23,946 nt of DNA from a virus (IMGVR_UViG_2617270941_000003:1-23946); one strand, 5' to 3'. Numbered from the stretch's first letter, positions 3,659 through 22,213 are shown. Numbers and translations are program-made. The notes: a model not told the origin generated them from the letters alone.

Positions 3659-4123
3659 TTACTTTAAACACTGCTCGGTTATGTATTGCTGAGCACCTTC
3701 AAGTTGGGCCTGCATCATTACCAGTCGTTCCCGGAGGGTGAAATAATCCCGTTCAGCGGTGTCTGCCAGTCGGGGGGAGGCTGCATTATCCACGCCGGAG
3801 GCGGTGGTGGCTTCACGCACTGACTGACAGACTGCTTTGATGTGCAACCGACGACGACCAGCGGCAACATCATCACGCAGAGCATCATTTTCAGCTTTCG
3901 CATCAGCTAACTCCTTCGTGTATTTTGCATCGAGCGCAGCAACATCACGCTGACGCATCTGCATGTCAGTAATTGCCGCGTTCGCCAGCTTCAGTTCTCT
4001 GGCATTTTTGTCGCGCTGTTCTTTGTAGGCGATGGCGTTATCACGGTAATGATTAACACCCCATGACAGGCAGACGACGATGCAGATAACCAGAGCGGAG
4101 ATAATCGCGGTTACTCTGCTCAT
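3659..4123 (-). CDS. Rz: Rz i-spanin (inner-membrane lysis protein)
   Basis: 154 aa with an N-terminal TM segment and coiled-coil body, near-identical to lambda Rz as recalled. Its start overlaps the endolysin stop. Confidence 0.85.
3718..3903 (-). CDS. Rz1: Rz1 o-spanin lipoprotein, embedded in Rz in another frame
   Basis: 61-aa ORF wholly inside Rz with a lipobox (LVVVGC) and a proline-rich body ([15 protein letters not shown]), the classic embedded Rz1 architecture. Confidence 0.8.
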
Positions 4124-4596
4124 ACCTCAATCTCTCTGACCGTTCCGCCAGCTTCTTTGAATTTTGCAATCAGACTGTCAGCCTTATGCTCGAACTGACC
4201 ATAACCAGCGCCCGGCAGTGAAGCCCATATATTGCTGCAACGGTCGATAGCCTGACGGATATCACCGCGATCAATCATCGGCAAAGCGCCACGCTCTTTA
4301 ATCTGCTGCAGCGCTACAGCATCCTGACTTTCTGGAGAAAAATCTTTCAGGCCAAGTTGCTTGCGGTAGGCATCCCACCAGCGTGAAAGAAGCTGGTAAC
4401 GTCCAGCGGCTGTTGATTTGAGTTTCGGATTTAGCGTGACAAGTTTGCGGGGGTGATCGGAGTAATCAGTGAACAGTTCGCCACCGACAATAACATCATA
4501 ACCGTGATTTCTGGTTTTCTGCCGTCCGTTATCTGTTCCTTCTGACCATGCCACCATATCAAGGAAAGCTTTACGCTGGGAATTAAGTGTCTGCAT
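4120..4596 (-). CDS. R: Endolysin, lambda R-type lytic transglycosylase
   Basis: 158 aa ([51 protein letters not shown]...), nearly identical to lambda R over its full length as recalled. AAGGAG Shine-Dalgarno 6 nt upstream. Confidence 0.9.
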
Positions 4597-4624
4597 TAAT
4601 TACTCCTTATGGGCACCGAACTTG

Positions 4625-4939
4625 TTACCGATGACCCTCATTGCCGCACCACGAATAGCAAACACCAATCAGCCCCACCCCACCACCAATGGCAACAGAA
4701 AGTGATTTAGGCCATCCGACATACTCAAGCGCGGATGCAAAGGTCAGCGTCAGAGCACCACAAAGCAGAATCTCAAGCGTTTTTCGTTTCCAGCCGCCGC
4801 CACCGCCAAAATAGGCAATGCGCAAACCAGCCATAATAATTGACATAACCACTGCACCCAGCGGCGTATCTCCACGCCACCAACTTTGTAAGAGTTCCAG
4901 TAAGTCAGGCCAGGAATGAGGGGCATTGTGCATTTTCAT
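4625..4939 (-). CDS. S: Putative class I holin with a lambda-S-like dual start (Met-Lys-Met)
   Basis: Small protein with three hydrophobic segments directly upstream of R-Rz-Rz1. The ORF opens at GTG (4948) followed by in-frame ATG-AAA-ATG (4939 and 4933), behind a GGAGGTGA Shine-Dalgarno. The sequence itself does not resemble lambda S and lacks a strongly charged C-terminal tail, so the call rests mainly on position and topology. Confidence 0.6.
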   Translation of the reverse strand: MKMHNAPHSWPDLLELLQSWWRGDTPLGAVVMSIIMAGLRIAYFGGGGGWKRKTLEILLCGALTLTFASALEYVGWPKSLSVAIGGGVGLIGVCYSWCGNEGHR

Positions 4940-5035
4940 AAGCCTCACCTCCGAGAGTTCGGATGGTGCTAAGTGTAAGATTCAGGCTCTCAGGCTTGCT
5001 AACAAGAAGTCGAGGATGTTTCCGGAGCCTAACAA

Positions 5036-5062
5036 CGAAAAAGCCCCGGGACATGCCGGGGC
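5036..5062 (-). terminator. Rho-independent terminator (minus strand) between the membrane-protein moron and the holin
   Basis: Minus-strand GC-rich hairpin (plus-strand GCCCCGG 5043-5049 pairing with CCGGGGC 5056-5062) followed on the minus strand by TTTTT. Confidence 0.5.
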
Positions 5063-5156
5063 CAGATGGAGTGCCAGATTAAGCTTCTGGCGGTATATAC
5101 TCGTGTTTGATATCGTTAAATCGCCAAAAGTAACAATTCAAACAAAGAGGATTTTT

Positions 5157-5318
5157 ATGTCTGAAAAAAACAAACCACAAGGTGAAAATAAACCTCAGCA
5201 ACCCGTGGCACCAAAACCAACTCCAACACAAAGTACTACAGACTTTGCTACACGTCGTGTTTTTGTTGGAGATTCTGCCGACTCAGTCATTGAACATATA
5301 AAAAAACAGCCGAGATAA
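5157..5318 (+). CDS. Hypothetical small hydrophilic protein (53 aa, Pro/Gln-rich N-terminus)
   Basis: ATG at 5157 preceded by AGAGGA 7 nt upstream. Translation MSEKNKPQGENKPQQPVAPKPTPTQSTTDFATRRVFVGDSADSVIEHIKKQPR. Its 3' end overlaps the 3' end of the convergent minus-strand gene by 32 nt. The longer ORF in the track (from 4926) overlaps the holin start and is probably not the real N-terminus. Confidence 0.35.
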   Translation: MSEKNKPQGENKPQQPVAPKPTPTQSTTDFATRRVFVGDSADSVIEHIKKQPR

Positions 5319-5856
5319 ACATCGCCGCTACCGGAGCAAGGATGGTATACATCCTTGCTTTATCGAGACTCGTGCGGATTTTCTCATTTTCCAACAGTAA
5401 CTCTCTTGCTGTATCACTCAAGTCAACAAGGCGATACCTTCGTATAAGCGGCAATAACTTATCAGGTCCTAAATATCCTGCATCAGCGAATATTTTAAAG
5501 CTCGAGGGCTCCATATCCTTATATTTTTCATGATATAGATGATCAGGAGGGGCATTGATCAGGCCCCTAACCTTCACAGATAAACCAGTACATACCAAGT
5601 AAATGGCGCACCATGTCCATAGTAATGTAAATGTGGTAATTCCGGCGGTGAGAAAATCGAAATTAGTTTTCTGTGTCAGCAATAAAAAAGATGAACCAAT
5701 TCCAACAATCTGAATGTTCAGAAGTTTGTATCCATTCTCAACATTGGTTTTGTTAGAAAGATGAATCTCTCGTATCGTCTCTTCCCCTTGTTTTTCAAGA
5801 TAATCGACGAGCTCATCATCTACTCCTAAAAAATAATCTTTAGGTAGTTCTCTCAT
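5287..5856 (-). CDS. Hypothetical membrane protein (189 aa, acidic N-terminal domain, three predicted TM segments); moron between the Q region and the lysis cassette
   Basis: ATG with GGAGGTGA Shine-Dalgarno 4 nt upstream. AT-rich codon usage unlike neighbouring phage genes. No family recognised from the sequence. Confidence 0.6.
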   Translation of the reverse strand: MRELPKDYFLGVDDELVDYLEKQGEETIREIHLSNKTNVENGYKLLNIQIVGIGSSFLLLTQKTNFDFLTAGITTFTLLWTWCAIYLVCTGLSVKVRGLINAPPDHLYHEKYKDMEPSSFKIFADAGYLGPDKLLPLIRRYRLVDLSDTARELLLENEKIRTSLDKARMYTILAPVAAMFISAVFLYVQ

Positions 5857-5963
5857 CTCACCTCCACATCCTGTACTGAAAACAATTTTACCAGAATGTC
5901 TCGATTCTAGGTATTCCGCCAGGAATCGCGCTCCAGAAATGAAACATCAGGTTCGCCAGTACC

Positions 5964-5994
5964 AGAAACAACAAAACCCGCTCAATGGCGGGTT
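5964..5994 (-). terminator. Putative tR'-like terminator downstream of the Q-like gene
   Basis: Minus-strand hairpin (plus-strand AACCCGC 5975-5981 and GCGGGTT 5988-5994) followed on the minus strand by TTTTGTTGTTT. Sits where lambdoid phages place tR', between Q and the first late gene. Confidence 0.5.
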
Positions 5995-6077
5995 CTGGTA
6001 AAGTTCATGCGCTTGGTTCGCCTCGCGATACAGCTTTGCGAAGCATACCGGAATTGAAGCAGTTTATGCGTAAAAAA

Positions 6078-6620
6078 TCAAGCTATTTTTTGAGCAAATG
6101 ATTCTCGCATGGGAATATATAGGGCATACTCAGCAACAGCCAACCAATTAGCAATTCGCTTTTCGCATGTGCTAAAACACCACTCAGGATGTGCATCATT
6201 TAGCAATTCAGCCATTTTGCGCTTAGTCATCCCCCGTCCTTCATACCGTTGCCGGAGGACACTAATCAATCCAGGATGCTCTGCCAGCACCTCACTTATG
6301 ACTCTATCAATACATAACGCCTCTGCATCAGTACAATGCGCCAGCCAGGTCTTTTGCTTGCCATTGATCATCTCTCGCAAAAACGCTTCCAGCTCAGGTT
6401 TCTCTATTCCCGCTTTTTTCATCCTGCGCAGGGCTTCATTGACGGCTGTTTTCGTCAATTTTTTGGATGCCAGCAACTGGTTAAACATATTTCCCGTCTT
6501 ACCGCCGCCAATATACGACCAGCGCCCCCACATGCGCAGTTTTCCCTGAATCCAGACACTTTCCAGCGTGGTGAGACGAAGGTGTTCCCCGCTTTTGCCT
6601 GTATTTGTTGGGTAAATCAT
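6078..6620 (-). CDS. Putative late-gene antiterminator (Q-like); family assignment uncertain
   Basis: 180 aa from the internal ATG at 6620 (MIYPTNTGKSG...), with a GGAGAAAGGAAGG ribosome-binding region, translationally coupled to the upstream gene by an ATGA overlap. It sits immediately upstream of a terminator and the lysis genes. The Q-like assignment is from position and overall resemblance, not a verified alignment. Confidence 0.5.
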   Translation of the reverse strand: MIYPTNTGKSGEHLRLTTLESVWIQGKLRMWGRWSYIGGGKTGNMFNQLLASKKLTKTAVNEALRRMKKAGIEKPELEAFLREMINGKQKTWLAHCTDAEALCIDRVISEVLAEHPGLISVLRQRYEGRGMTKRKMAELLNDAHPEWCFSTCEKRIANWLAVAEYALYIPMRESFAQKIA

Positions 6621-6907
6621 AAATAACCTTCCTTTCTCCAGATTTCTTGTGTGCGAAAAACACCTTCTGCATGCATCAGGCGTAATTCTTCTTTGGTGTA
6701 ATCGCTGGTTTTTACCCGCCCGTCGATTAAATCGTGGCATGAGCTACAGGCAATCGCTGCCTGCATATCGTGTGGTTTTGTCGCTGTTCCGCACGTCCCC
6801 GCCAGCCTGTAATGCGCCAGCACAGAGGTTTCGGGATTGTGATTGCAGTAGCCAGGGATTCTGATCTGGCACATCTGGCCTTTAGCCGCTTTACGTAAAT
6901 TCACCAT
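6617..6907 (-). CDS. YbcO-like prophage protein (DUF1364 family, Cys-rich putative metal-binding nuclease)
   Basis: 96 aa (MVNLRKAAKGQMCQIRIPGYCNHNPETSVLAHYRLAGTCGTATKP...IACSSCHDLIDGR), closely resembling DLP12 YbcO as recalled. Confidence 0.7.
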   Translation of the reverse strand: MVNLRKAAKGQMCQIRIPGYCNHNPETSVLAHYRLAGTCGTATKPHDMQAAIACSSCHDLIDGRVKTSDYTKEELRLMHAEGVFRTQEIWRKEGYL

Positions 6908-7506
6908 TACGCAAACTCCAGTAGTTGTGCGGCCACATTTTCAACTTCCTCCTGAGAGGAGAATTTACGGAACAGAATCCAGTTCCACAGCACATTCAGA
7001 ACAGATTTATAAACCTGCTGAAACTCGGTTTCGTCCATATTCGCAAACGCGATGGATTTCGCCCTGCGCCCACGGCTACCGTCCGGATAAATATGCTCGG
7101 TGTAAAATCCGGCCTGAATGGTTACCCACTCGCGGAAAGCCTCAAACGACTTTAGCAATGCCGTATCCCGAGTTCTGCGTGTCGCAACTGTATTTAGATA
7201 TTGCTCTGCGGCATCACTCAGGGCTGGTGTGTGTTCCCGACCAACTGATTCGCACAAGTAATCCACGAAACCAGACAGCAGTTCTCGTTCGCGAGGTGTG
7301 ATCGCCCCACCGACCGGAGTCCAGTAATCGAATCCCAGTTGCAGGAGTTTGAAAAAACGCTTGTGGAATGCGTAGTTACGCACACGCTTAAAGTCTGCGT
7401 GTATCCACTCACCTATTTTGATTTGATGCAGAAAATCGCAACTCTCCGGCGTCGCCGGGAGAAGTAAACCAGAAGAGGTTTGTTTGACCAGTTGTATATG
7501 CGCCAT
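6907..7506 (-). CDS. nin-region phage protein, possibly DUF1367 family
   Basis: 199-aa ORF directly upstream of, and coupled to, the YbcO-like gene, an arrangement common in lambdoid nin regions. Family assignment is from memory and is tentative. Confidence 0.5.
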   Translation of the reverse strand: MAHIQLVKQTSSGLLLPATPESCDFLHQIKIGEWIHADFKRVRNYAFHKRFFKLLQLGFDYWTPVGGAITPRERELLSGFVDYLCESVGREHTPALSDAAEQYLNTVATRRTRDTALLKSFEAFREWVTIQAGFYTEHIYPDGSRGRRAKSIAFANMDETEFQQVYKSVLNVLWNWILFRKFSSQEEVENVAAQLLEFA

Positions 7507-7786
7507 TTCTCAATCTCTCGATGGCGCAGCGCAGCAGATGCCAGTTGTTCAGGCTGACGAATAAAGTATAAATAAACTGGCTATGGTGTAAAGCCCCACA
7601 TAGCATGAACAAACACTACATATCAAATAGCTGGTACAAGGATAGAAATACGACATTTATTATTAAAAACGATTAGATAAATTACATTTTAATGTTATGC
7701 AAAAGTTCTTTTTTATCATAACATTTCAATAAAAGCATTACAGATGCAATCATCCCGTCATCATCAATTATTTAAGGTGGTTAAAC

Positions 7787-7873
7787 ATGGAAAATAACAA
7801 GTTCGCACATCTCGCTCCTTTTTTATCCGTAATCCTTTTCGCTTGTTGTTTTATATGGGCATTATTTTTATAA
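7787..7873 (+). CDS. Candidate small hydrophobic protein (28 aa): MENNKFAHLAPFLSVILFACCFIWALFL
   Basis: ATG at 7787 with AAGGTGG 6 nt upstream, a single predicted TM helix and a Cys-Cys pair. Lies in an otherwise ORF-free AT-rich stretch. Confidence 0.4.
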   Translation: MENNKFAHLAPFLSVILFACCFIWALFL

Positions 7874-7947
7874 AGTAGCCGCATGATAAGTTGCTGGAAT
7901 CATATTTCCCACTCAAGTCATTAACATTTGATAAGATATATCTAAAA

Positions 7948-8006
7948 GGACACCTTTACATTATTTATGTGTATATAATTTATTTATATACACAGTAAAG
8001 GTATCC
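7948..8006. repeat. Nested imperfect palindrome in AT-rich non-coding DNA
   Basis: Outer arms GGACACCTTTAC (7948-7959) and GTAAAGGTATCC (7995-8006), 11 of 12 complementary. Inner arms TGTGTATATA (7968-7977) and TATATACACA (7985-7994), a perfect 10-bp inverted repeat with a 7-bp spacer. Confidence 0.5.
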
Positions 8007-8264
8007 TGGGAAAATATTTATCGTTAAAAAATACATCATAAATAATTAAGCTGAAATTTCAGAACACAACTAATACACACAATAAGGTTCAGTAACAATA
8101 ATCTATGTGGACTACATCGAGATTTTTTGATTAAACTTTAATAACTTATTCCTAACACACAGAATGCATAAACTAAAAGTAAAACAAATAGTTATACGAA
8201 AAACAACCATATTTATTATATCTTCTCCTCTAATCAACATATCAATTATGTGTTTCATAACAGC

Positions 8265-8312
8265 TTGACATAACCCTCAAAAACACGCATTTATAATGCA
8301 TGTTTTTGAGGG
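8265..8312 (+). promoter_or_regulatory. Putative promoter with an overlapping 17-bp inverted-repeat operator upstream of the YeaR-like gene
   Basis: Consensus TTGACA (8265-8270) and TATAAT (8292-8297), but with a long 21-bp spacer. Inverted repeat CCCTCAAAAACACGCAT (8274-8290) / ATGCATGTTTTTGAGGG (8296-8312), one mismatch, centred on the -10 element. Confidence 0.45.
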
Positions 8313-8319
8313 GGTGGTT

Positions 8320-8658
8320 ATGACACACAAGAGAATTCCTAAAGATTGGGTAATCAAACGCTCAACTCCGTTCTTCACAAAAGAGAACGTACCTTCAGCG
8401 TTATTAACACATCATAATACAGCAGCAGGTGTTTTTGGGCAGTTGTGCGTAATGGAAGGCACTGTAACATATTATGGTTTTACTGATGAGAATGCTACTG
8501 AACCGGAGATAAAAGTAGTCATTAATGCTGGCGCTTTTGCAACAAGCCCACCACAATACTGGCACCGTGTTGAACTAAGCGATGATGCTCAGTTTAATAT
8601 TAACTTTTGGGTCGCTCCAGACTTCTCGGGCGAAAAAGTCTATAGCACCAAAAAATAG
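8320..8658 (+). CDS. YeaR-like protein (DUF1971, the domain also found at the TehB N-terminus)
   Basis: 112 aa from the ATG at 8320 (GAGGGGG Shine-Dalgarno). Motifs RSTPFF, CVMEGTVTYYGFTDE, EPEIKVVINAGAFATSPPQYWHRVE and FNINFWVAPD parallel E. coli YeaR as I recall it. Confidence 0.65.
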   Translation: MTHKRIPKDWVIKRSTPFFTKENVPSALLTHHNTAAGVFGQLCVMEGTVTYYGFTDENATEPEIKVVINAGAFATSPPQYWHRVELSDDAQFNINFWVAPDFSGEKVYSTKK

Positions 8659-8687
8659 ATGATCATATTAAAAATGCTTTAACAGTC

Positions 8688-8725
8688 AGACCCGGCAGGG
8701 CTATCCCCGACGGGTCTCATTTTTG
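8688..8725 (+). terminator. Rho-independent terminator of the YeaR-like gene
   Basis: AGACCCG (8688-8694), loop, CGGGTCT (8711-8717), then CATTTTTGT. Confidence 0.6.
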
Positions 8726-9420
8726 TAAATATATTGGTTCTACATTGACAGGAGACTTCAACCATAAGAAGTAATCTGAATACTTGAGCAATAAATTTAC
8801 TTAAGATTAATGAGCGCACCTTGCCGGACAAAGATAAACCAAGGTAACACCTTTTTTCTAGCCAGTATGTAATCAATCAGAAAGCCGCTCCATAAGAACA
8901 ACAGCAAGACAATAAATTGCCATTACAGCCGCAATAGCCAGCGCACATTTGAGAACCAGCACGACAACCCCCTGTATTAGACGCACACCAGTCCTGATAA
9001 ATATGAGGCTGTCTCGTCAGTGATTCAATACAACTATTGGGTATAGTTTCTGTGATTTTATTCTGTAGAAATGGAACACAACAACCAGTCACCACCAGCA
9101 CTTCTTTAAATACGCCAAGTCCGACGCAAGCTAACCTTCTAGTCCGCTTTGAGCGAAAAGCGGACAGGAACATTCTGGTTAATAGATATCAATGCTAACA
9201 AAAAAGCTCCCGATGGAGATTTTGAAACCGCTTCCACATAATGAAATAAAAGGATTTATTTCTGATCATGCCCACACATTGACCACGTCGAAGTAAGTAG
9301 CTCCGCTTCGCGGAGTTACTTAAGATAATTTCTATGTAGTTCCATGCTATGATTTAATTTTCAAGTTACAAAATCTAAATCTACAAATGTCCATTTGGGT
9401 GTAAAATTACACAATCCTAT

Positions 9421-11746
<2,326 letters not shown>

Positions 11747-12047
11747 TTTAATTACCTTATATATCCAAACTCTTAATTTTCTCTTTTTTACCATAGGATT
11801 AATCCAAAATAAAGACCTTGTTGACTAAACCCTCATGTACAAAATGCACACTTACTCAAAAGGATCTGGAGGCAATCTCGACCTCCATGATTTAGTTCCT
11901 AGGGATAAGCAGAAATCTAGCACTGGATTAAAATTTAAAAATAATAATCAATAGGTTATAATGGTTTTTATTCGCATCCATGGGATCTGCTGCTGCCCGC
12001 ATGATGTTGGATGCGACGGCGCTGGCACGACCTCACCCGGTGAAACG

Positions 12048-12492
12048 ATGAAACGCGAAAGGGTTGTTCTTCGGGAAGGTGCAGTTGGACTTTCAATCGA
12101 TGACGTTGCAAAAGAGGCTGGCGTCAGTAAGGCAACGGTAATGTACGATCATAAGTCAAAGCAAGATTTGCTCAGCGATCTCATCAGTCGCCTTATGCCA
12201 GTAGAGGAGGAACGTGTTCAGCAAGCGATAGCGGAAAGTAATAATACCCCACATCCCGCACTCTATGGGCGAATTATTTCAGCCAGTAATGCTCTCAGTC
12301 ATACTGAGAGCAGTAGTGCTGGCGGTCAGCGAATCGTTAACTAACGATACGAATATCAGGGACACCATGCGTTCCTGCACAAACAAAGATTTGGATGAGA
12401 TAAAAAGAGGACCAAAACCAGACGTTGCCGTCCTGGTATATTTGGCGTTATCTGGTATCTACTGCCAAGAATTTTTTGATTTTTACAAATGA
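12048..12492 (+). pseudogene. TetR-family transcriptional regulator, apparently frameshifted, divergent from the three-gene operon
   Basis: The first ORF (frame of 11961..12344) carries a TetR-type helix-turn-helix (LSIDDVAKEAGVSKATVMYDHKSKQDLLSDLI) from an internal ATG at 12048. A second overlapping ORF (12265..12492) in a different frame could be the remaining C-terminal domain. Confidence 0.4.
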
Positions 12493-12765
12493 TCTCCTGG
12501 CGAGCGAGATAAAATTATCGAAGGCATTCGCTGTTTGTATGAATCATACCCTTACAAGTCTGAATAAATAATGTCTCCGGGAATGACATTTCATGTGCGA
12601 CTAATTCGCGATATTCCTATACGTAAAGGTCCGCTTTTGGCACAAAGTGGACAACCACGCTAGCTCTACCCTGTGCCACAAAATGTCAATTTGCATCTGA
12701 ACTAATGCACTTTAATCTCGTCACTTCAATAAATACCGAACATCCCCCTGATAAAACGACAATAT

Positions 12766-13143
12766 TCACTGCATAACTTCACTCTTCAGGCACTCGCGAC
12801 AGATTATGTTCAGACGCCTGTCGTAACGGCGTATTTCTCCGTCTGGTAATGACCAGATAAGGTCAGGATCAACCACAACCGGTTTCTTCACCTTTGTCCT
12901 TGATAGTTTTTTGCGGGCGTTTTGCCAGTCTTTACGCGCCTGCTCAGACGGGAATAATCCGTAGCCTGAATTGTAAACATCACCACTGGCGACTAGTTCT
13001 CTGGCGAGAGTGCTTATGTAATACCTTGATGCACCGGTTTTAGCCTCCAGAGCCCGTAACGTCTCGCGACCGCTCAGAGGTACAAGTTCAACAACCTGTC
13101 CTTTAATTTTTTCTCGCTCTTCTGGTGTAAATACTTTTGCCAT
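12766..13143 (-). CDS. Hypothetical phage protein (125 aa)
   Basis: ATG at 13143 with GGAGG 5 nt upstream; the track's longer ORF begins at an upstream TTG. Follows the preceding gene after a 15-nt gap. No family recognised. Confidence 0.5.
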   Translation of the reverse strand: MAKVFTPEEREKIKGQVVELVPLSGRETLRALEAKTGASRYYISTLARELVASGDVYNSGYGLFPSEQARKDWQNARKKLSRTKVKKPVVVDPDLIWSLPDGEIRRYDRRLNIICRECLKSEVMQ

Positions 13144-13158
13144 AGGTGCCTCCGGCAA

Positions 13159-13920
13159 TCACTTTTCCGATGCAACATGGCGGGAAGAATCAGTAATCTG
13201 TCGTACAATATCCCTGTGCTTGTTCAACTCACGCAGCGCGGCGCAGACACGCTCCCACTTCTGGACATGATTTTTCGCCCGACGCAGTTCGCGGTTTGCC
13301 ATATGCAGTGATGGTAAAACCAGGTCATCCGCTCGCGTTTCAGTAAACGATGGCAGCGACTGCACAATGTCCGCCACAGTTTCTGTTTTAATATCTTCCT
13401 GTGTTGCAGCCTCCTGTACTGGTAACGCAACACCTGCGGTCTGAGGAAAGGCCTTACCATCAGTTTCCGCTACCGATGCTGCTTTCGGCTCTGCTGGTAA
13501 ATTATCGCCCGGTATGCAGTAACGAAATTTACCGCCCTGATTTACGCGAATCAGACGACCTTTGCTGATTGCCATTGCCAGCGTTGAAGCCACTTTGCGT
13601 GATGTGGTACCAAACAATGTAGCCAGCTCATCAGCCGTTTGTGGTCCTCGTTGTTCAATCGTCGCGGTTAAATCGCACTCTGAGATTTTCGCTACTGTTG
13701 CTGTGGTGATTTCTTCCGGCAGTTCTGCCTGCGCTGGCTGTTCCTGCTGAACATTGTTATCAGCCACACGCCAGGTGTACGCGCTTTTATCAACAAAACC
13801 AGCCTTTTTCAGTTCCCATAGTTCGTTCAGCACTTCTTCACGACTGATATCAAGTCGCGCAGCAAGTTCTATGGATGTGGCTTTTCCCATTGCTTTCAGT
13901 GCGTCAAAAACAGTCTCCAT
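13159..13920 (-). CDS. Hypothetical phage protein with two winged-helix-like segments (about 254 aa)
   Basis: ATG at 13920 with GGGAGA 8 nt upstream (the track ORF extends to 13971 and would overlap the DnaC-like gene). Segments [30 protein letters not shown] and [33 protein letters not shown] look like DNA-binding winged helices. Confidence 0.5.
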
Positions 13921-14695: not shown

Positions 14696-15553
14696 TTACC
14701 CCCTGAAGCCTGGCGGGATCGCACTATCCGGTAACGAGACGGTGTTAACCTGTCGGAGTAACGTCTCAGGTCGAACACCTTTCGGCGCGAACAAGCCCTG
14801 GTATTCATTGGCGATGCTGTGTCGAATCACCTGCTCAGGTGAAAAACCCTGCTGGCGGAATTTTTCCAGCTCCCGTATCGCCCCGTTAGCGCCCTGCTCC
14901 GTTCGAATCGGTTTTCGCAATGCCTGGCGAAATTCAACCCACTCACGCCAAAGCGAGACAGAAATCCAGTTCGGCAAAGTAATATCCAGAGGGTCAAACT
15001 TTTTGACACCTCGATTCCCCCGGGGGGGATTTAGGGGGGGATCTGTTTTTAGATCTTTATCTGTATCTTTATTAGTTGCCTTTGTGTTGACATCATGTTC
15101 AAACACCACTTCAACATCTGTTTGAACACCTGTTAAATTTCTCTCTTGTTTTGTTTGAACATCTGCTTCCTTTCTGCTTCTTCTGGCCTGAACAGATGCT
15201 TTTCCTGCGGCTGATTTTTTGGTTAATTTTTCCCTGACTGATGCCAGATCTTCCTCAATCCGAAGATGCACCCATTCCTCGCCGTTATCGCAAAAAAACT
15301 CCTGCAAGGATGGTTCAACATCAGCCCATCGCTCGTTAGTCAGACGGGCAATTTTTGCCAGCCTGTTTTTAGGTATTGGCTTTCCTGTTTGCCAGTAATT
15401 GAACATCAGCAACAAATACGCACCATGCTCCTCTGCTGACAAATGCATGGTGTCAGCCAGGTAATCAGCTATGTACAGTTGCATGTATGGTAATGCGGCC
15501 ATAATTGCCCCGTATGATGCTGCCCGGTGGCTTAGAATAAGCACAAACAGCAT
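14696..15553 (-). CDS. ydaU: YdaU-like replication protein (O-like initiator, DUF1376-type)
   Basis: 285-aa ORF immediately upstream of the DnaC-like gene, matching the YdaU length I recall. Contains internal iteron-like repeats and homopolymer tracts. The start is uncertain; an alternative ATG lies at 15502. Confidence 0.7.
   Translation of the reverse strand: MLFVLILSHRAASYGAIMAALPYMQLYIADYLADTMHLSAEEHGAYLLLMFNYWQTGKPIPKNRLAKIARLTNERWADVEPSLQEFFCDNGEEWVHLRIEEDLASVREKLTKKSAAGKASVQARRSRKEADVQTKQERNLTGVQTDVEVVFEHDVNTKATNKDTDKDLKTDPPLNPPRGNRGVKKFDPLDITLPNWISVSLWREWVEFRQALRKPIRTEQGANGAIRELEKFRQQGFSPEQVIRHSIANEYQGLFAPKGVRPETLLRQVNTVSLPDSAIPPGFRG
15096..15161. repeat. Iteron-like 10-bp repeats inside the O-like gene (candidate replication origin)
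   Basis: TGTTCAAACA at 15096-15105 (inverted) and TGTTTGAACA at 15119-15128 and 15152-15161 (direct), each flanked by CATCTG. Lambda's origin likewise sits as iterons inside the O coding sequence. Confidence 0.4.
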
Positions 15554-15728
15554 GGAAACTTTTGCTTAATGAACAATGACAGAATCGTCGGAAGAACCGC
15601 CGCCGCTGAAATGCGCTTTCCGGTAAGGGGTTAAGTAGCCAGCCCGAGGCGTATGAACATGACGGCGGGATTCAAATTTTGCAGTGCAGCAGTTAGTTCC
15701 GCCACCCGGCGTTAAGGGGAGAGATAAG

Positions 15729-15863
15729 ATGGTGCATTACGAAGTAGTTCAGTATTTGATGGATTGTTGCGGTATCACTTACAACCAGGCTGTGCAGGCT
15801 TTACGCAGCAACGACTGGGATCTCTGGCAGGCAGAAGTCGCTATACGTAGCAACAAGATGTGA
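15729..15863 (+). CDS. ydaG: Small protein, probable YdaG homologue (44 aa)
   Basis: ATG with AGGGGAGAG Shine-Dalgarno. Translation MVHYEVVQYLMDCCGITYNQAVQALRSNDWDLWQAEVAIRSNKM. Length and position match Rac ydaG; sequence identity was not checked. Confidence 0.5.
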   Translation: MVHYEVVQYLMDCCGITYNQAVQALRSNDWDLWQAEVAIRSNKM

Positions 15864-15873
15864 GATTCGCAAA

Positions 15874-16029
15874 ATGCAAAAAATCGACCTCGGCAACAAC
15901 GAATCCCTGGTGTGCGGCGTGTTCCCCAACCAGGATGGAACGTTCACTGCCATGACGTATACCAAAAGCAAAACATTTAAAACCGAAACTGGTGCGCGCC
16001 GATGGTTGGAGAAGCACACAGTAAGCTAA
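15874..16029 (+). CDS. ydaF: Small protein, probable YdaF homologue (51 aa)
   Basis: Translation MQKIDLGNNESLVCGVFPNQDGTFTAMTYTKSKTFKTETGARRWLEKHTVS. Follows ydaG after 10 nt; its 3' end overlaps the convergent sieB stop by 4 nt. Confidence 0.5.
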   Translation: MQKIDLGNNESLVCGVFPNQDGTFTAMTYTKSKTFKTETGARRWLEKHTVS

Positions 16030-16514
16030 CGATTAAAACGTCTACTCCTGCTGTTCCAGAATAACTTCATAAAATGGGAGTATTTTTCGGTGACGAGATA
16101 ATAAGAACAGTTTGCGCTATCACTCTGATGTTGAATGATGCCCTTCCGTTCTAATTTTTTCATAACCGGGTTACGGCAAGGAGAAGTGATAATAAGATTT
16201 CCTGTTTTAAGGAAATCTTTAAATACAGCGATTTCTTTCTCAGATAAACGAAGCAATACTCGTTGCTCTGGTAGTAATGAATAATGCTTTTGAATATGTG
16301 CTCGCAATCTTGAGAAGGAAATGGCGACCACGAAAGAAAAGGCAAAAACGATAATCTGAAAGAGCCAAGGTATTTCAGTATAAGCATTGAATGCGACAGT
16401 AAACTCTTTCGGTATCAGCCAGAGAGTGAGACCAAAAATGATAATCGTATACATAAGTCTTTCGAGTGGCTCGTTTGCAAAAAGTTTCAACAATGGAGTA
16501 AATACATCCAACAT
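16026..16514 (-). CDS. sieB: Superinfection exclusion protein B-like membrane protein
   Basis: 162 aa from the internal ATG at 16514 (MLDVFTPLLKLF...), matching the Rac SieB length, with several TM helices. Divergent from kilR as in Rac. Confidence 0.7.
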   Translation of the reverse strand: MLDVFTPLLKLFANEPLERLMYTIIIFGLTLWLIPKEFTVAFNAYTEIPWLFQIIVFAFSFVVAISFSRLRAHIQKHYSLLPEQRVLLRLSEKEIAVFKDFLKTGNLIITSPCRNPVMKKLERKGIIQHQSDSANCSYYLVTEKYSHFMKLFWNSRSRRFNR

Positions 16515-16955
16515 ATCAATAACTCTCAACTGTAAGGGTATTGAAATGTTAACACAAGCTCTCGCTGTAGGGGTATAGCCGAGACCACCGAAGCCCGGAG
16601 GTGGTGAAATAAAACCGGGCACAACACGAAGGCGCATTTCCGATATCCATAAAGAGTCGGTCTTGTCTGTTAAATTTAAATGGTGGGAGTGCGCCTCCGG
16701 TTGTAAATAACGACATTGCTGTGTGTAGTCCTGGCGGCATCAGTTTTTTTCTTGAAGTTCGGCTGATGTCCGCCCTTTTTAAAGTGAATTTTGTGATGCG
16801 GTGAATGCGGCTAAGCGCACGTGGCACAGTTAAAAGTCATGTTAGTCCTTATTGGTTTGGGTGGGAAAGCCGACTGTAATTGTTAACTGGTTGCAGTCAC
16901 CTGGAGGCACCAGGCACCGCATCAACAAAGTTCATTTGTAAAAATGGAGATAATT

Positions 16956-17177
16956 ATGATTGCACATCACTTCGGAACTGATGAAATACCACGTCAGTGT
17001 GTGACTCCTGGTGATTATGTTCTTCATAACGGCCGGACATATATTGCCTCGGCAAACAATATTAAAAAGCGAAAACTTTATATTCGTAACCTGACCACAA
17101 AAACATGCATTACTGACTGCATGATTAAAGTCTTCCTCGGTCGTGATGGTTTACCTGTAAAGGCGGAGTCATGGTGA
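16956..17177 (+). CDS. kilR: KilR, FtsZ-targeting cell-division inhibitor
   Basis: 73 aa from [46 protein letters not shown]..., matching Rac KilR as recalled. Confidence 0.8.
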
Positions 17178-17347
17178 TGACTAAGAAAATAAAATGTGCT
17201 TACCACCTTTGCGATAAAGAAGTTAAAGAAAGCAAAAGCATTAAAAGACCACTTCATTTCATGCGTGGAGTTATCCCAACGACGGAAATGAAAAAATATT
17301 GTAGTGAAATATGTGCCGAAAAAGACCAGATGGCACACGAAATTTAA
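17177..17347 (+). CDS. ydaE: YdaE-like small zinc-binding protein (56 aa)
   Basis: Translation [56 protein letters not shown] with C-x-x-C...C-x-x-x-C spacing. Its start overlaps the kilR stop. Below the ORF-track length cutoff. Confidence 0.65.
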   Translation: MTKKIKCAYHLCDKEVKESKSIKRPLHFMRGVIPTTEMKKYCSEICAEKDQMAHEI

Positions 17348-17421
17348 TTAACTGACTATGCGAAACTGAATTTATGCCAGCAATGGCAGGGATTCGCTCA
17401 ACCTTAATTAAGGAGAAAAAC

Positions 17422-17697
17422 ATGATTACCAGTTATGAAGCCACTGTTGTAACTACTGATGACATTGTTCACGAAGTTAATCTGGAAGGAAAGCGTATTG
17501 GCTACGTGATTAAAACAGAAAATAAAGAAACCCCATTCACTGTGGTTGATATCGACGGTCCATCAGGCAACGTTAAAACACTTCACGAAGGTGTCAAAAA
17601 AATGTGCCTGGTGCATACCGGAAAGAATCTGCCCGCAGAAAAAAAAGCCGAATTTCTGGCAACTCTAATTGCAATGAAATTAAAAGGTGAAATCTGA
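17422..17697 (+). CDS. racC: RacC protein
   Basis: 91 aa from MITSYEATVVTTDDIVHEVNLEGKRIGYVIK..., with AGGAGA Shine-Dalgarno 6 nt upstream. Confidence 0.8.
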   Translation: MITSYEATVVTTDDIVHEVNLEGKRIGYVIKTENKETPFTVVDIDGPSGNVKTLHEGVKKMCLVHTGKNLPAEKKAEFLATLIAMKLKGEI

Positions 17698-17798
17698 AAG
17701 AAATAGCCTGCGTATGGCGCAGGCTATGAACAGTGTGTATCCGGCAAGATCATTCACTGAACAAAACGAATTTTAATCTGAGTTGAGGTTAAAAAACA

Positions 17799-20700
17799 AT
17801 GAGCACAAAACCACTCTTCCTATTACGGAAAGCGAAAAAATCATCCGGTGAACCTGACGTCGTCCTGTGGGCAAGCGACGATTTTGAATCGACCTGTGCC
17901 ACTCTGGACTACCTGATCGTTAAGTCAGGTAAAAAACTGAGCAGCTATTTTAAAGCTGTTGCCACGAATTTTCCTGTCGTTAATGACCTGCCCGCTGAAG
18001 GTGAGATCGATTTTACCTGGAGTGAACGCTACCAACTCAGCAAAGACTCCATGACATGGGAACTAAAACCGGGAGCAGCACCAGACAACGCTCACTATCA
18101 AGGCAATACCAACGTCAACGGCGAAGACATGACTGAGATTGAGGAGAATATGCTACTCCCAATTTCTGGCCAGGAACTGCCCATTCGCTGGCTTGCTCAA
18201 CACGGCAGCGAAAAACCGGTAACGCATGTTTCACGCGACGGACTCCAGGCATTACACATTGCTCGGGCTGAAGAACTACCGGCTGTTACTGCCCTGGCTG
18301 TTTCCCACAAAACCAGCCTGCTCGACCCGCTGGAAATTCGCGATCTCCACAAACTGGTTCGTGACACTGACAAAGTTTTCCCTAATCCTGGTAATTCAAA
18401 CCTGGGACTGATAACTGCTTTTTTCGAAGCATACCTGAACGCTGACTACACCGATCGAGGACTGCTGACAAAAGAGTGGATGAAGGGTAATCGTGTTTCA
18501 CACATCACTCGCACGGCTTCCGGTGCTAATGCTGGCGGCGGAAACCTCACCGATCGCGGCGAAGGTTTCGTACACGATCTGACGTCACTGGCGCGCGACG
18601 TAGCCACTGGCGTACTGGCCCGTTCAATGGATCTGGACATCTATAACCTTCATCCGGCACACGCTAAACGCATTGAGGAAATTATCGCTGAAAATAAACC
18701 GCCCTTTTCTGTTTTCCGCGACAAATTCATCACCATGCCTGGCGGGCTGGATTATTCCCGCGCCATCGTGGTTGCGTCCGTAAAAGAAGCACCAATTGGG
18801 ATCGAGGTCATCCCCGCGCACGTCACTGAATATCTGAACAAAGTACTGACTGAAACCGATCATGCCAACCCTGATCCGGAAATCGTGGATATTGCCTGCG
18901 GTCGCTCCTCTGCCCCAATGCCGCAGCGTCTAACAGAAGAAGAAAAACAGGATGATGAAGAAAAACCGCAACCATCTTGCGCAATGGCAGATGAACAGGC
19001 AACGGCTGAAACAGTGGAACCGGATGCAACTGAACATCATCAGGACACGCAGCCGCTGGATGCTCAGTCACAGGTAAATTCTGTTGATGCGAAGTATCAG
19101 AAACTGCGGGCAGAACTCCATGAAGCCCGGAAAAACATTCCGCCCAAAAATCCTGTCGATGCAGACAAATTACTGGCTGCCTATCGCGGAGAATTTGTTG
19201 AAGGGATTAGCGACCCGAATGATCCGAAATGGGTTAAGGGGATCCAGACCCGCGATTCTGTGTACCAGCATCAGCCAAAAACGGAACAGAACGACCGAAA
19301 ATCGGAACAAAACGGCCAAAATGCGCGACAAAATGAACCAGAAGCGCAACAGGAACCGGAAAAAGTCTGCGCCGCCTGCGGTCAGACCGGCGGCAGTAAC
19401 TGCCCTGACTGTGGCGCGGTGATGGGCGACGCAACATACCAGGAAACATTCGATGAAGAGAATCAGGTTGAAGCTAAGGAAAATGATCCGGAGGAAATGG
19501 AAGGCGCTGAACATCAGCACAAGGAGAACGCTGGCAACCATCCGCATCACGATTGCAGTGATGAAACTGGTGAAGCGTCAGCTCATGTAGCAACTGAAAT
19601 CATGTGGCCATCATATTTCGAGCCTGGCCGCTATGAAAACCTCCCGAGCGAGGTTTATCACTCCGCCAACGGAATAAGCAGCACAATGCTGAAGGATGCC
19701 CGCATCAGTCTGATGTATTACCACGGGCGGCACATTGCCAGGACTATTCCGAACGAGGAAAGTGATGCATTGCTGCGTGGGCGGATCATTCACAGCTATG
19801 TTCTGGAAACGGATAAATTCGCTGATGAATATGCCATTCCGGTACCGGTTCCTGAATATGTGGTTACTACTTCTAACGAACTGATCACCATCATTAAAAA
19901 ACACAATGCCAGTCTGCCATCACTGATGACACCAGAGCAGATGAAAGAGTGGATCGAAAGCTACAACAGCACTCTTATACAGCCACTGTCGGTAAGCGCT
20001 GGGGCCGAAGAAACAGGCATCCTTTACGGTTCGCTTCCGGAGGAATTTCGGCGTATTCCTGAGGGGGAAAAACACAAAGCATCAGCAATGAAAGCCTGTA
20101 TTAAAGAATACAACGCAAGCCTCCCTCCTCTGCTGAAAACCAGTGGAACACGGGAGCAGCTTCTGGAGCAAATTGAAACTGTAGATCCAGAACTGGCAAA
20201 AAAAGAACGTGCTAAATCGTTGCCTTACAACATCAGTGGCACAAAAGAGCAATTAACCGAAATCGCCCGGAAAATTCGCCCGAAACTGGTAACACTGGAG
20301 GATTGGCAAAAACGCCAGCAAGAAGAAAATGCAGGAAAAACGTTTATCAGTCCAGATATGTATGAACAGGCAAAAAATATTCACGCGGCACTGCAAAACA
20401 ATACTGACGCGGCAAGACTACTCAACCACCCGGATCGCAAATCTGAAATCAGCTATTTCGGGTTTGATGAAGAAACCGGGCTGGAAATCAGGGTCCGCCC
20501 TGATATCGAAATCCGACTGCCATACGAAAGCATCTGCGCCGACGTGAAGTCAGTCAGCCTCGGTTATGTGCGGCAAGAACGACTAAAAGATCGCTTACAC
20601 CGTGAAATTATTGAACGTGATTATCACCTGAGCGCCGCAATGTACTGCGATGTGGCAAACCTGGACAAATTTTTCTGGATCTTCGTCAACAAAGATGCTG

Positions 20701-20891
20701 GCTATCACTGGGTGGCTGTCGTGGAAGCCTCGCAGGAACTCCTGGAACTTGGTCGACAGGAATATCGCCGGACGCTACGACAGATAAACGAAGCGCTGGA
20801 GACAAACAACTGGCCAGCACCGATTACCGAAAGTTATACCGACGAATTAAACGACTTTGATCTTCGTCGTCTTGAAGCACTGAGCATCTGA
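17799..20891 (+). CDS. recE: Exodeoxyribonuclease VIII (RecE-like), 1030 aa, with a divergent C-terminal PD-(D/E)XK nuclease domain
   Basis: The N-terminal ~600 aa ([44 protein letters not shown]...) follow K-12 RecE closely as recalled, including the CxxC...CPDC zinc ribbon. The C-terminal domain ([11 protein letters not shown]...RPDIEIR...ADVKSVS) is RecE/YqaJ-like but clearly different from K-12 and longer. Confidence 0.85.
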
Positions 20892-20902
20892 GGAAGGACA
20901 CA

Positions 20903-21955
20903 ATGAACGAATTAACTCAACAAGAAAATATTAACTCTAATGTTGCGGTTTTCAGCCCTCAGTCTCTGACTGCAATTCAGACGTTTTCTCAGGTAATGGC
21001 TTCCGGCATGGCTACTGTACCGGAACACCTCCGAGGAAATCCATCAGACTGCATGGCCATCACCATGCAGGCGATGCAGTGGCAAATGAACCCTTACGCA
21101 GTAGCTCAGAAAACTTTCGTTGTGAATGGTGTGCTCGGATATGAAGCGCAACTGGTTAATGCCGTAATCAGTACTCGTGGGCCGCTAACCGGGCGTATTG
21201 AATATGACTGGTTCGGGCCGTGGGAAAAAATTATCGGGAAATTTGAAATCAGGAAGAACGACAAAGGGAAAGAATATCGTGTACCTGGCTGGAAGCTGGC
21301 CGATGAAAACGGGATTGGAGTTCGCGTCCAGGCAACACTACGCGGAGAGAGCAAACCACGCGTACTGGAGTTACTTCTGGCGCAGGCCAGAACACGTAAC
21401 TCAACGTTATGGGCCGATGATCCTCGTCAGCAGCTTGCCTATCTGGCACTCAAACGCTGGGCGCGCCTTTATTGCCCTGAAGTGATTCTTGGAGTGTACA
21501 CCCGGGACGAACTGGACGAACCACAGGAAAAAATCATTAATCCGGTTCAGGAACATAAAAACACATCCGCCTGCCGTGCGGAACGTGAAACAACAATTAT
21601 TGAGCAGGATGCCGGGGAAAACTGGATCAGTGCTTTCCGTGAACGTATTGAGCAGGCACAAAGCACCGGAGAAACAACAGCACTTCGGCAGGAAGTGGAA
21701 GAGCATAAAAATACACTTGGCGCTCTCTATACGGAACTAAAAGGAAAAGTGGTTCAGCGTCATCACCGTCTCAATGCTATTGCCCGTATTGAGAAGATGA
21801 TAAATGACCTGCCTTCATCAGGTGATCCGGAAGCAGAACAAAAATTTACTGCTCTGGAAAATACGCTGAATACTGCACGACCACATCTGGGAGAATTATA
21901 TGAGGCGTATAAAACGACACTGACAGATATGAAACCAGAATATATCGAACCCTGA
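20903..21955 (+). CDS. Single-strand annealing protein, RecT/Red-beta-like partner of RecE (not the K-12 RecT sequence)
   Basis: 350-aa ORF 11 nt downstream of recE, in the position of recT. No Walker motifs, which argues against a Sak4/RecA-type protein. Family assignment by position and general character only. Confidence 0.55.
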   Translation: MNELTQQENINSNVAVFSPQSLTAIQTFSQVMASGMATVPEHLRGNPSDCMAITMQAMQWQMNPYAVAQKTFVVNGVLGYEAQLVNAVISTRGPLTGRIEYDWFGPWEKIIGKFEIRKNDKGKEYRVPGWKLADENGIGVRVQATLRGESKPRVLELLLAQARTRNSTLWADDPRQQLAYLALKRWARLYCPEVILGVYTRDELDEPQEKIINPVQEHKNTSACRAERETTIIEQDAGENWISAFRERIEQAQSTGETTALRQEVEEHKNTLGALYTELKGKVVQRHHRLNAIARIEKMINDLPSSGDPEAEQKFTALENTLNTARPHLGELYEAYKTTLTDMKPEYIEP

Positions 21956-22018
21956 TATTTACTATGGCGGTGTAGCCTCACCGCCATAACAAAAATTTAT
22001 TATATGAGAGAAAAGACA

Positions 22019-22213
22019 ATGCGGTATGAAAAAGTCAAACCATGTCTATTTTGTGGTTGTCCATCAGTAACGGTGAACGCCATTTCAGGATATTACCGAG
22101 CGAAGTGTAACGGATGCGAATCCCGAACCGGTTATGGTGGAAGTGAAAAAGAAGCACTCGAAAGATGGAATAAACGAACCACTGGAAATAATAATGGAGG
22201 TGTTCATGTATAA
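22019..22213 (+). CDS. ralR: Lar/RalR (restriction alleviation protein and type I toxin DNase)
   Basis: 64 aa from MRYEKVKPCLFCGCPSVTVNAISGYYRAKCNGCESRTGYGGSEKEALERWNKRTTGNNNGGVHV, near-identical to Rac Lar as recalled. Confidence 0.8.
   Translation: MRYEKVKPCLFCGCPSVTVNAISGYYRAKCNGCESRTGYGGSEKEALERWNKRTTGNNNGGVHV

Follow-up and report, generated by a model that had tools for sequence, protein, structure and literature searches.

Does an exonuclease that has been given a foreign annealing partner lie in a Rac-like prophage when the gene found in the position of recT encodes a protein unlike RecT of Escherichia coli K-12? This question is raised by IMGVR_UViG_2617270941_000003:1-23946, a viral stretch of 23,946 nucleotides (nt), called the window below, which carries a Rac-like prophage (int-xis-ralR side). 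An open reading frame (ORF) located at 20903..21955 on the + strand, just downstream of recE, encodes a 350-residue protein. An earlier note on this stretch had proposed that a swapped annealase next to a RecE with a divergent C-terminal domain would constitute a variant recombination module. As argued here, the module is very probably a mosaic, in which a K-12 Rac-like 5' part of recE is joined to a nuclease/recT cassette of the Gifsy type, and acts as a two-component recombinase whose annealase would carry an adaptor for its exonuclease.

A nuclease domain and an annealase replaced together

The recT allele is an intact ORF that starts with ATG. Its start is separated by 11 nt from the stop of recE (1030 residues, 17799..20891), and a Shine-Dalgarno sequence, GGAAGGA (20892..20898, + strand), lies 5 nt upstream of the ATG. 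The genes then follow in the order ralR/lar, xis and int, a layout shared with K-12, Gifsy-2 and HK225; a scan for terminators and promoters around the recET module gave nothing above the shuffled expectation. Compared with the K-12 references (RecE and RecT, taken from NC_000913), the 350-residue protein gave only noise against RecT in BLASTP (best E = 0.37), and hhalign, run with a profile of 59 of its relatives, gave a probability of 0.3% and no alignment. The earlier note had stated that this ORF does not read like K-12 RecT, given there as a protein of 269 residues, and that a close alignment between the two would argue against a variant module; the length is indeed 269 residues and no such alignment was found.

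The profile search that had been proposed along with this claim placed the protein within the RecT family without aligning it to K-12 RecT. It matches Pfam PF03837 (RecT) with 147.9 bits for a cutoff of 24 (E = 3.4e-43, profile positions 2-190 of 198), and phrog_561 ('RecT-like ssDNA annealing protein') with E = 6.7e-144; none of the NCBIfam naming models matches at E<=0.01. K-12 RecT matches the same PF03837 model (positions 1-187). As both match this model despite the missing pairwise similarity, the two proteins can be regarded as deeply diverged clades of a single family, i.e. the window carries a deeply diverged allele rather than another kind of annealase. This allele belongs to the Gifsy-type clade (phrog_561) and not to the K-12 type (b1349): it is 48% identical to Gifsy-2 RecT over its full length (residues 10-348), C-terminal domain included. 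In keeping with membership of the RecT family, its gene directly follows that of a 5'-3' exonuclease within a prophage recombination module.

The limits of the replacement are given by a BLASTN comparison with the whole K-12 Rac prophage. Identity is 96% over 15622-19575, no match is found over 19576-21964, and identity is 97% from 21965 up to the last position of the window. On the left, the joint is found within recE, at codon ~592 (corresponding to K-12 residue ~586), where the nuclease domain has its boundary. On the right, the joint is found at 21965, which is 10 nt beyond the recT stop codon, next to a conserved hairpin (GGCGGTG-N6-CACCGCC, 21966..21985) whose stem sequence is common to both cassettes in an in-register comparison. 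The replaced block amounts to 2389 bp, versus 1654 bp in K-12. Since K-12 homology stops inside recE and resumes past the recT stop, the nuclease domain of RecE has been replaced together with the entire recT gene, as one ~2.4-kb cassette. Its arrival would most likely have involved a homologous exchange between lambdoid prophages, with the linker region of recE serving as the left arm and the hairpin following recT as the right arm.

RecE is therefore composed of two parts of different origins. The 5' part (codons 1-~592, 17799..19575, + strand; 96% nucleotide identity to K-12 Rac) encodes the Exonuc_VIII N-terminal region of unknown function and an acidic/CxxC linker; residues 1-594 share 92% identity with residues 1-587 of K-12 RecE, and PF06630 matches residues 2-178. 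Beyond residue ~594, the alignment with K-12 RecE drops to 29% over 133 residues and this remainder is ~150 residues longer than its K-12 counterpart, so that the divergence of the RecE C-terminus announced in the earlier note is borne out. The 3' part (residues ~593-1030, 19576..20891, + strand) has no DNA homology to K-12 and encodes the replaced PD-(D/E)XK nuclease domain (Pfam DUF3799/PDDEXK), of Gifsy type, which is 51% identical to the RecE C-terminus of Gifsy-2 and 50% to that of HK225. HMMER aligns it with the solved K-12 RecE nuclease domain, 3H4R (E = 3e-07), including RPD and DVK. The catalytic motifs are RVRPD with D902 (20490-20504, + strand) and ADVKS with D915 and K917 (20538-20552, + strand). 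The equivalent K-12 motifs lie at 744-748 and 758-762, and the catalytic residues there are D748, D759 and K761; the PD-(D/E)XK catalytic residues are retained in the window. The whole protein also exceeds the cutoff of the exodeoxyribonuclease VIII equivalog NF007259 (1487.7 bits for a cutoff of 1269), a score that comes largely from the K-12-like N-terminal part. In K-12, the nuclease domain comprises residues 564-866 and genetically replaces the whole protein (review PMC11611040).

Alignment with K-12, Gifsy-2 and HK225 delimits a 174-residue insertion within the incoming nuclease domain (residues 671-844, 19809..20330, + strand). It consists of three units of ~45-50 residues with the pattern 'YN(A/S)(S/T)LP...T.EQL' and is absent from K-12 RecE and from the nucleases of Vibrio phage VBM1 and phiV10. 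No Pfam family matches it at threshold; permissive searches only gave sub-threshold SAP/Ish1-like hints, and a HeH/SAP fold is not claimed.

Two further observations concern the 5' part of recE. Shortly before the joint, the acidic linker contains a CxxC…CxxC motif (residues 524-539, 19368-19415) that is conserved in K-12 RecE and is possibly a zinc-ribbon-like element. Furthermore, a patch at 18095-18453 (codons ~100-218), where the window follows K-12, has no DNA homology to two other alleles, JNU and pPE4, and is flanked by ~91% identity. The recE gene is a patchwork of at least three segments.

The pPE4 allele belongs to PP818812.1 (L003 in our set), deposited as 'Actinobacillus phage vB_Apl-pPE4' and labelled as a phage of A. 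pleuropneumoniae. Its Rac-like kil-recE-recT region shares ~96% DNA identity with the window and its RecT 98.6% amino acid identity; the host assignment looks doubtful, unless this phage has an unexpected host range. Over 19590-21952, synonymous divergence (dS) between the two is 0.017 in the nuclease domain and 0.155 in recT. This jump of about nine-fold at the recE/recT boundary indicates a further putative recombination joint between the two genes.

The allele is neither rare nor new. It is carried by 193 of 5426 complete E. coli genomes (full length in 163), always on the chromosome and annotated 'RecT family recombinase', while 1749 of the same genomes carry the K-12 allele; the exact chimeric joint of recE is spanned in 191 of them. 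Among NCBI contigs, the exact RecT sequence is found on 70 and the exact chimeric RecE on 11, and homologues number >6500. Because the allele is common and annotated and the exact protein is widely deposited, this RecET can be considered, on the basis of its sequence, as an ordinary and already catalogued Gifsy-type cassette in a Rac backbone. A literature search on Rac-SA53 phage yielded no relevant description. The locus is an ordinary feature that had been read correctly: lambdoid prophages are mosaics, and the allele is homologous to the recET genes of Gifsy, which have been characterised genetically. When mutationally activated, recET of Gifsy-1 and Gifsy-2 suppress recombination defects in Salmonella (PMC3121763), and a 2025 survey defines a Gifsy-1-type class of Rec modules made of a nuclease and an annealase, without anti-RecBCD function (PMC12315714).

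The source records of several relatives bear the label 'enterohemolysin' or 'RecT family enterohemolysin', which would make the 350-residue protein a haemolysin-associated factor. Beside the PF03837 and phrog_561 matches given above, this reading is scarcely credible. Another oddity of the databases is that the 90%-identity cluster of this RecT includes several 64-residue RalR toxin sequences; ralR lies downstream, at 22004-22213, and their presence is probably a clustering artefact.

It could also be argued that recET is only the inert cargo of a decaying cryptic prophage and is intact by chance: defects are frequent among Rac-like prophages, the racR-ydaS-ydaT block is missing from this one, and many related loci carry recE::recT deletion fusions and truncations. 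This is improbable, since both ORFs are full length with a good ribosome-binding site, the catalytic residues are retained and full-length copies are kept in the 163 complete genomes mentioned above. In addition, comparison with the 96%-identical allele of PP818812 gives a ratio of nonsynonymous to synonymous substitution rates (dN/dS) of 0.07 for recT (33.5 synonymous and 8.5 nonsynonymous changes), i.e. the gene is under purifying selection.

The RecT C-terminal domain and its nuclease clade

An AlphaFold2 model of the 350-residue RecT, built from 59 homologues, displays three parts: an α/β core, a low-confidence linker and a confident all-helical C-terminal domain. The annealing core (residues ~19-196, 20957..21490, + strand) has, over the N-terminal ~180 residues, a predicted annealase fold of the Rad52/Redβ/RecT type. 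The linker (residues ~197-238, 21491..21616, + strand) is weakly conserved in the alignment and has a predicted local distance difference test (pLDDT) score <50 for residues 195-238; it is probably flexible. The C-terminal domain (residues 239-350, 21617..21952, + strand; pLDDT 84-90 for residues 239-347) is absent from K-12 RecT and is the part proposed below to be an exonuclease-docking adaptor. Pfam assigns it to no family, permissive thresholds giving sub-threshold spectrin-like hints only. A separate helical C-terminal domain attached to the core through a flexible linker, as predicted by the model, is the architecture known from λ Redβ.

In the phage collection, relatives of both the nuclease domain and RecT (48-52% identical) are adjacent in Gifsy-1, Gifsy-2, HK225, mEp237, SPN3UB, FSL SP-016, PHB10 and several Klebsiella prophages, all with a long RecE followed by a RecT of ~350-370 residues. 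All 20 records encoding a close full-length nuclease domain also encode the RecT C-terminal domain and, reciprocally, 20 of the 21 records with this C-terminal domain encode the nuclease, the exception being a record that ends inside recT. Relatives of the core only were found in 84 phage records. The C-terminal domain is 47% identical to those of Gifsy-1 and Gifsy-2, and its nuclease partner 51%.

The association was also found in a scan of genomes (one genome per species) seeded on the RecT C-terminal domain alone, which retrieved 80 loci. A complete nuclease domain of this clade lies directly upstream in 65 of them. The other 15, which include the apparent cases of a C-terminal domain devoid of its nuclease, proved on inspection to lie at contig ends or to be products of decay, such as in-frame fusions of recE with recT, truncated forms and recE stubs. 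In no case among the 80 loci does the C-terminal domain stand beside another intact exonuclease. The C-terminal domain therefore follows the exonuclease partner, as in a Redβ-like architecture, although this evidence is correlative.

These counts bear on the swap as it was first conceived, that is, an annealase replaced alone and left beside a non-cognate RecE with which it would cooperate poorly or not at all. The 92% identity of RecE to its K-12 counterpart over ~590 residues suggests at first glance that the exonuclease is the same. However, the joint falls within recE at codon ~592 and the entire nuclease domain is of the incoming type, and relatives of the two parts are paired in 20/20 phage records and in 65/65 loci with an intact upstream nuclease, so that a swap of the annealase alone is very improbable. 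The earlier proposal of a variant module stands insofar as the annealase and the RecE C-terminal domain both differ from K-12; the idea of a swapped partner has to be amended, as RecT was not exchanged alone and came with its matching nuclease.

In-frame deletion fusions between recE and recT that end in the RecT C-terminal domain are numerous in decayed prophages (P0128, P0134, P0135, P0138, P0144 and P0158). In the same way, a 474-residue ORF of the locus L013 fuses the N-terminus of RecE with the tail of RecT.

The core behaves differently from the parts that flank it. On the 62 usable loci, Mantel correlations between the C-terminal domain and the two halves of the nuclease reach r=0.68 and 0.72, whereas those of the core, whose DNA separates the two, with either the C-terminal domain or the nuclease are only 0.18-0.21. 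Individual loci illustrate such exchanges. In strain JNU, a third cassette found at the same Rac/ttcA site has a nuclease domain 97.5% identical to that of the window. The last ~190 nt of its recT are likewise ~97% identical, but its core is only 59% identical, the DNA identity ranging from 35 to 80% between ~20880 and ~21760. Aeromonas phage pAEv1818 encodes a nuclease of the same clade (49% identity, insertion present) but an annealase with a K-12-type core (31% identity to K-12 RecT, E=9e-27; no match to the core of the window), followed by a C-terminal domain homologous to that of the window (37% identity, E=6e-14). Conversely, Vibrio phage VBM1 encodes a related core (47% identity) that lacks the C-terminal domain, next to a nuclease in which the insertion is missing.

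An exhaustive search of 1.84 billion representatives recovered the C-terminal domain in just 48 clusters, always at the extreme C-terminus. One cluster member, P0124, combines a core of the K-12/pAEv type with this C-terminal domain, and it was predicted beforehand that its gene would adjoin a nuclease of this clade. The prediction held: in the locus L090, the gene directly upstream encodes a RecE of 996 residues, whose nuclease domain bears the insertion and is 70% identical to that of the window. A K-12-type core has thus replaced a Gifsy-type core twice beside this C-terminal domain and nuclease, in pAEv1818 and in L090. Taken as a whole, these sequence comparisons suggest that the nuclease domain forms one evolutionary unit with the C-terminal domain of RecT, and that the core encoded between them is interchangeable.

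Putative role of the C-terminal domain

The functioning of the module can be proposed as follows. On the model of other two-component phage recombinases, resection of double-stranded DNA ends in the 5'->3' direction would fall to the nuclease domain of RecE. The 350-residue RecT would then coat the resulting 3' single strand and anneal it to complementary single-stranded DNA. The helical C-terminal domain of ~110 residues, carried by a flexible linker, would tether the annealase to this clade of nucleases; such a tether would explain both the co-inheritance of the C-terminal domain with the nuclease and the exchange of cores.

A precedent is provided by λ, as the C-terminal domain of Redβ binds λ Exo and the single-stranded DNA-binding protein (SSB), and ensures the loading of Redβ onto the nascent 3' strand (PMC6393309, PMC11611040). 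RecT is known to bind RecE specifically, but a 2023 review (PMC11611040) states that whether such a domain serves this purpose in RecT 'is unknown', and a 2025 survey of lambdoid phages left the analysis of 'partner interaction domain shuffling' out of its scope. By analogy with Redβ, the data suggest that the RecT C-terminal domain is an exonuclease-docking adaptor for this RecE clade. A more specific proposal, namely a portable docking module dedicated to the insertion-bearing Gifsy-type nuclease, beside which cores were repeatedly exchanged, even between the K-12-type and Gifsy-type clades, has about an even chance of being correct.

The main competitor is that the C-terminal domain has another role (binding of the tail of host SSB, oligomerisation or regulation) and travels with the nuclease because both are conserved flanks that serve as homology arms when cores are exchanged. 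The Redβ domain also binds SSB (PMC6393309, PMC11611040), the co-divergence with the nuclease is imperfect, and the window and JNU share ~97% identity at the 3' ends of recE and of recT, which could simply be crossover arms. However, the same hosts (E. coli and Salmonella) carry related cores that lack the C-terminal domain and lie beside, or are fused to, other nucleases (phiV10, SPN1S), which SSB binding alone does not predict. Moreover, the association holds at 37-51% amino acid identity, where no DNA homology is left, and across two clades of cores (pAEv1818 and L090). This alternative is therefore rather unlikely, though still a serious one.

Several points weigh against this explanation of the module, and in particular against the docking adaptor. 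Co-divergence shows co-inheritance, not contact, and the 80 loci, which are mostly related prophages of Enterobacterales, are not fully independent. Among pairs of loci with near-identical nucleases, the C-terminal domains still show a median difference of 24%. The long form of the nuclease insertion is present in 58 of the 65 loci, and the other seven keep the C-terminal domain with a one-unit insertion of ~76 residues; because of these seven, the docking site is not assignable to the full insertion. The AlphaFold2 model of RecT is only moderate (mean pLDDT 71, predicted template modelling score 0.37); Foldseek gave no significant match with it, Redβ C-terminal domain included, and sequence and profile searches of the PDB with the 350-residue protein matched no RecT structure. 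Finally, the absence of racR-ydaS-ydaT from the prophage bears on the regulation of the recET operon. An earlier version of the docking proposal, which tied the C-terminal domain to the full 174-residue insertion, was weakened by the seven one-unit loci, and the claim was reduced to the nuclease clade.

If the C-terminal domain does dock the exonuclease, this would answer for RecT the question raised in the 2023 review and would supply the analysis of domain shuffling that lay beyond the 2025 survey. It would also give a design rule for chimeric recombineering pairs, in which any annealase core could be combined with the C-terminal domain that matches the exonuclease. The coupling pattern, the sole element of wider interest here, yields a hypothesis on how RecT-type annealases recognise their exonuclease that can be tested with defined constructs. 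The practical value of the locus is more modest: it provides an alternative RecET pair naturally adapted to E. coli, whose minimal unit, delimited by natural joints, would be RecE ~593-1030 plus RecT.

Prophage surroundings and known recombination systems

The prophage also differs from K-12 Rac outside the cassette. A segment of 1482 bp is missing, which comprises racR, ydaS, most of ydaT and 201 bp upstream of ydaG. The junction (15622-15626, 'GGTAA') shows a 5-bp microhomology, its flanks are 100% identical to K-12 near the joint (context 15425-15825), and it is spanned in none of the 5426 complete E. coli genomes. As the racR-ydaS-ydaT region is deleted, the early-left operon, to which recET belongs, is without its repressor. 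In addition, a 9.4-kb block of low GC content (4104-13470) is absent from K-12 Rac. It includes three abutting co-directional genes (9421-11794, - strand) that encode an adenosine-deaminase-family protein of 342 residues, which looks like the effector portion of CARF-ADA devoid of its CARF sensor, a Ham1/ITPase-like protein of 184 residues, and a stand-alone SIR2-like protein of 264 residues, resembling the SIR2 part of ThsA without its sensor. A small divergent ORF encoding a helix-turn-helix protein lies nearby (11961-12344). These three genes are a candidate prophage-borne cassette for defence or nucleotide modification, which does not correspond to a named PADLOC system.

Among known recombination systems, the closest are those of Gifsy-1 and Gifsy-2, together with HK225, mEp237, SPN3UB, FSL SP-016 and prophages of Klebsiella OXA48 strains. 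They share the gene order of the window, with RecE followed after 8-11 nt by a RecT of 350-371 residues. Their nuclease domains, insertion included, are 50-52% identical to that of the window and their RecT proteins 48-49% over the full length, C-terminal domain included. On the other hand, the N-terminal ~590 residues of RecE are K-12 Rac-like in the window (92%) and share only 41% identity with Gifsy-2 and 27-33% over short stretches with HK225, and the prophage backbone and the attachment side (intR/xisR/ralR) are those of Rac.

Conversely, the RecE-RecT system of K-12 Rac is alike in prophage family, position, flanking genes, Pfam families, nuclease catalytic motif and RecE N-terminus, but differs in the cassette itself. 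Its RecT, with 269 residues, has no pairwise similarity to that of the window and lacks the helical C-terminal domain. Its nuclease domain has 279 residues instead of 433, shares 29% local identity and is devoid of the 174-residue insertion, and its recE and recT genes overlap by 8 nt whereas they are separated by an 11-nt gap in the window.

The Exo-Redβ pair of λ has no sequence similarity to this module. The C-terminal domain of Redβ has ~70 residues, versus ~110 in RecT of the window, and λ Exo is a trimeric protein of 226 residues whereas the exonuclease of the window is a RecE-type domain that ends a protein of 1030 residues. Finally, the RecE-RecT fusions of the phiV10/epsilon15 type have an annealing core 63% identical to that of the window and a RecE-type PD-(D/E)XK nuclease. 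However, the nuclease and the annealase belong to a single polypeptide of 586 residues, in which the nuclease is short and without the insertion and the annealase lacks the C-terminal domain, as would be expected if this domain replaces a covalent tether.
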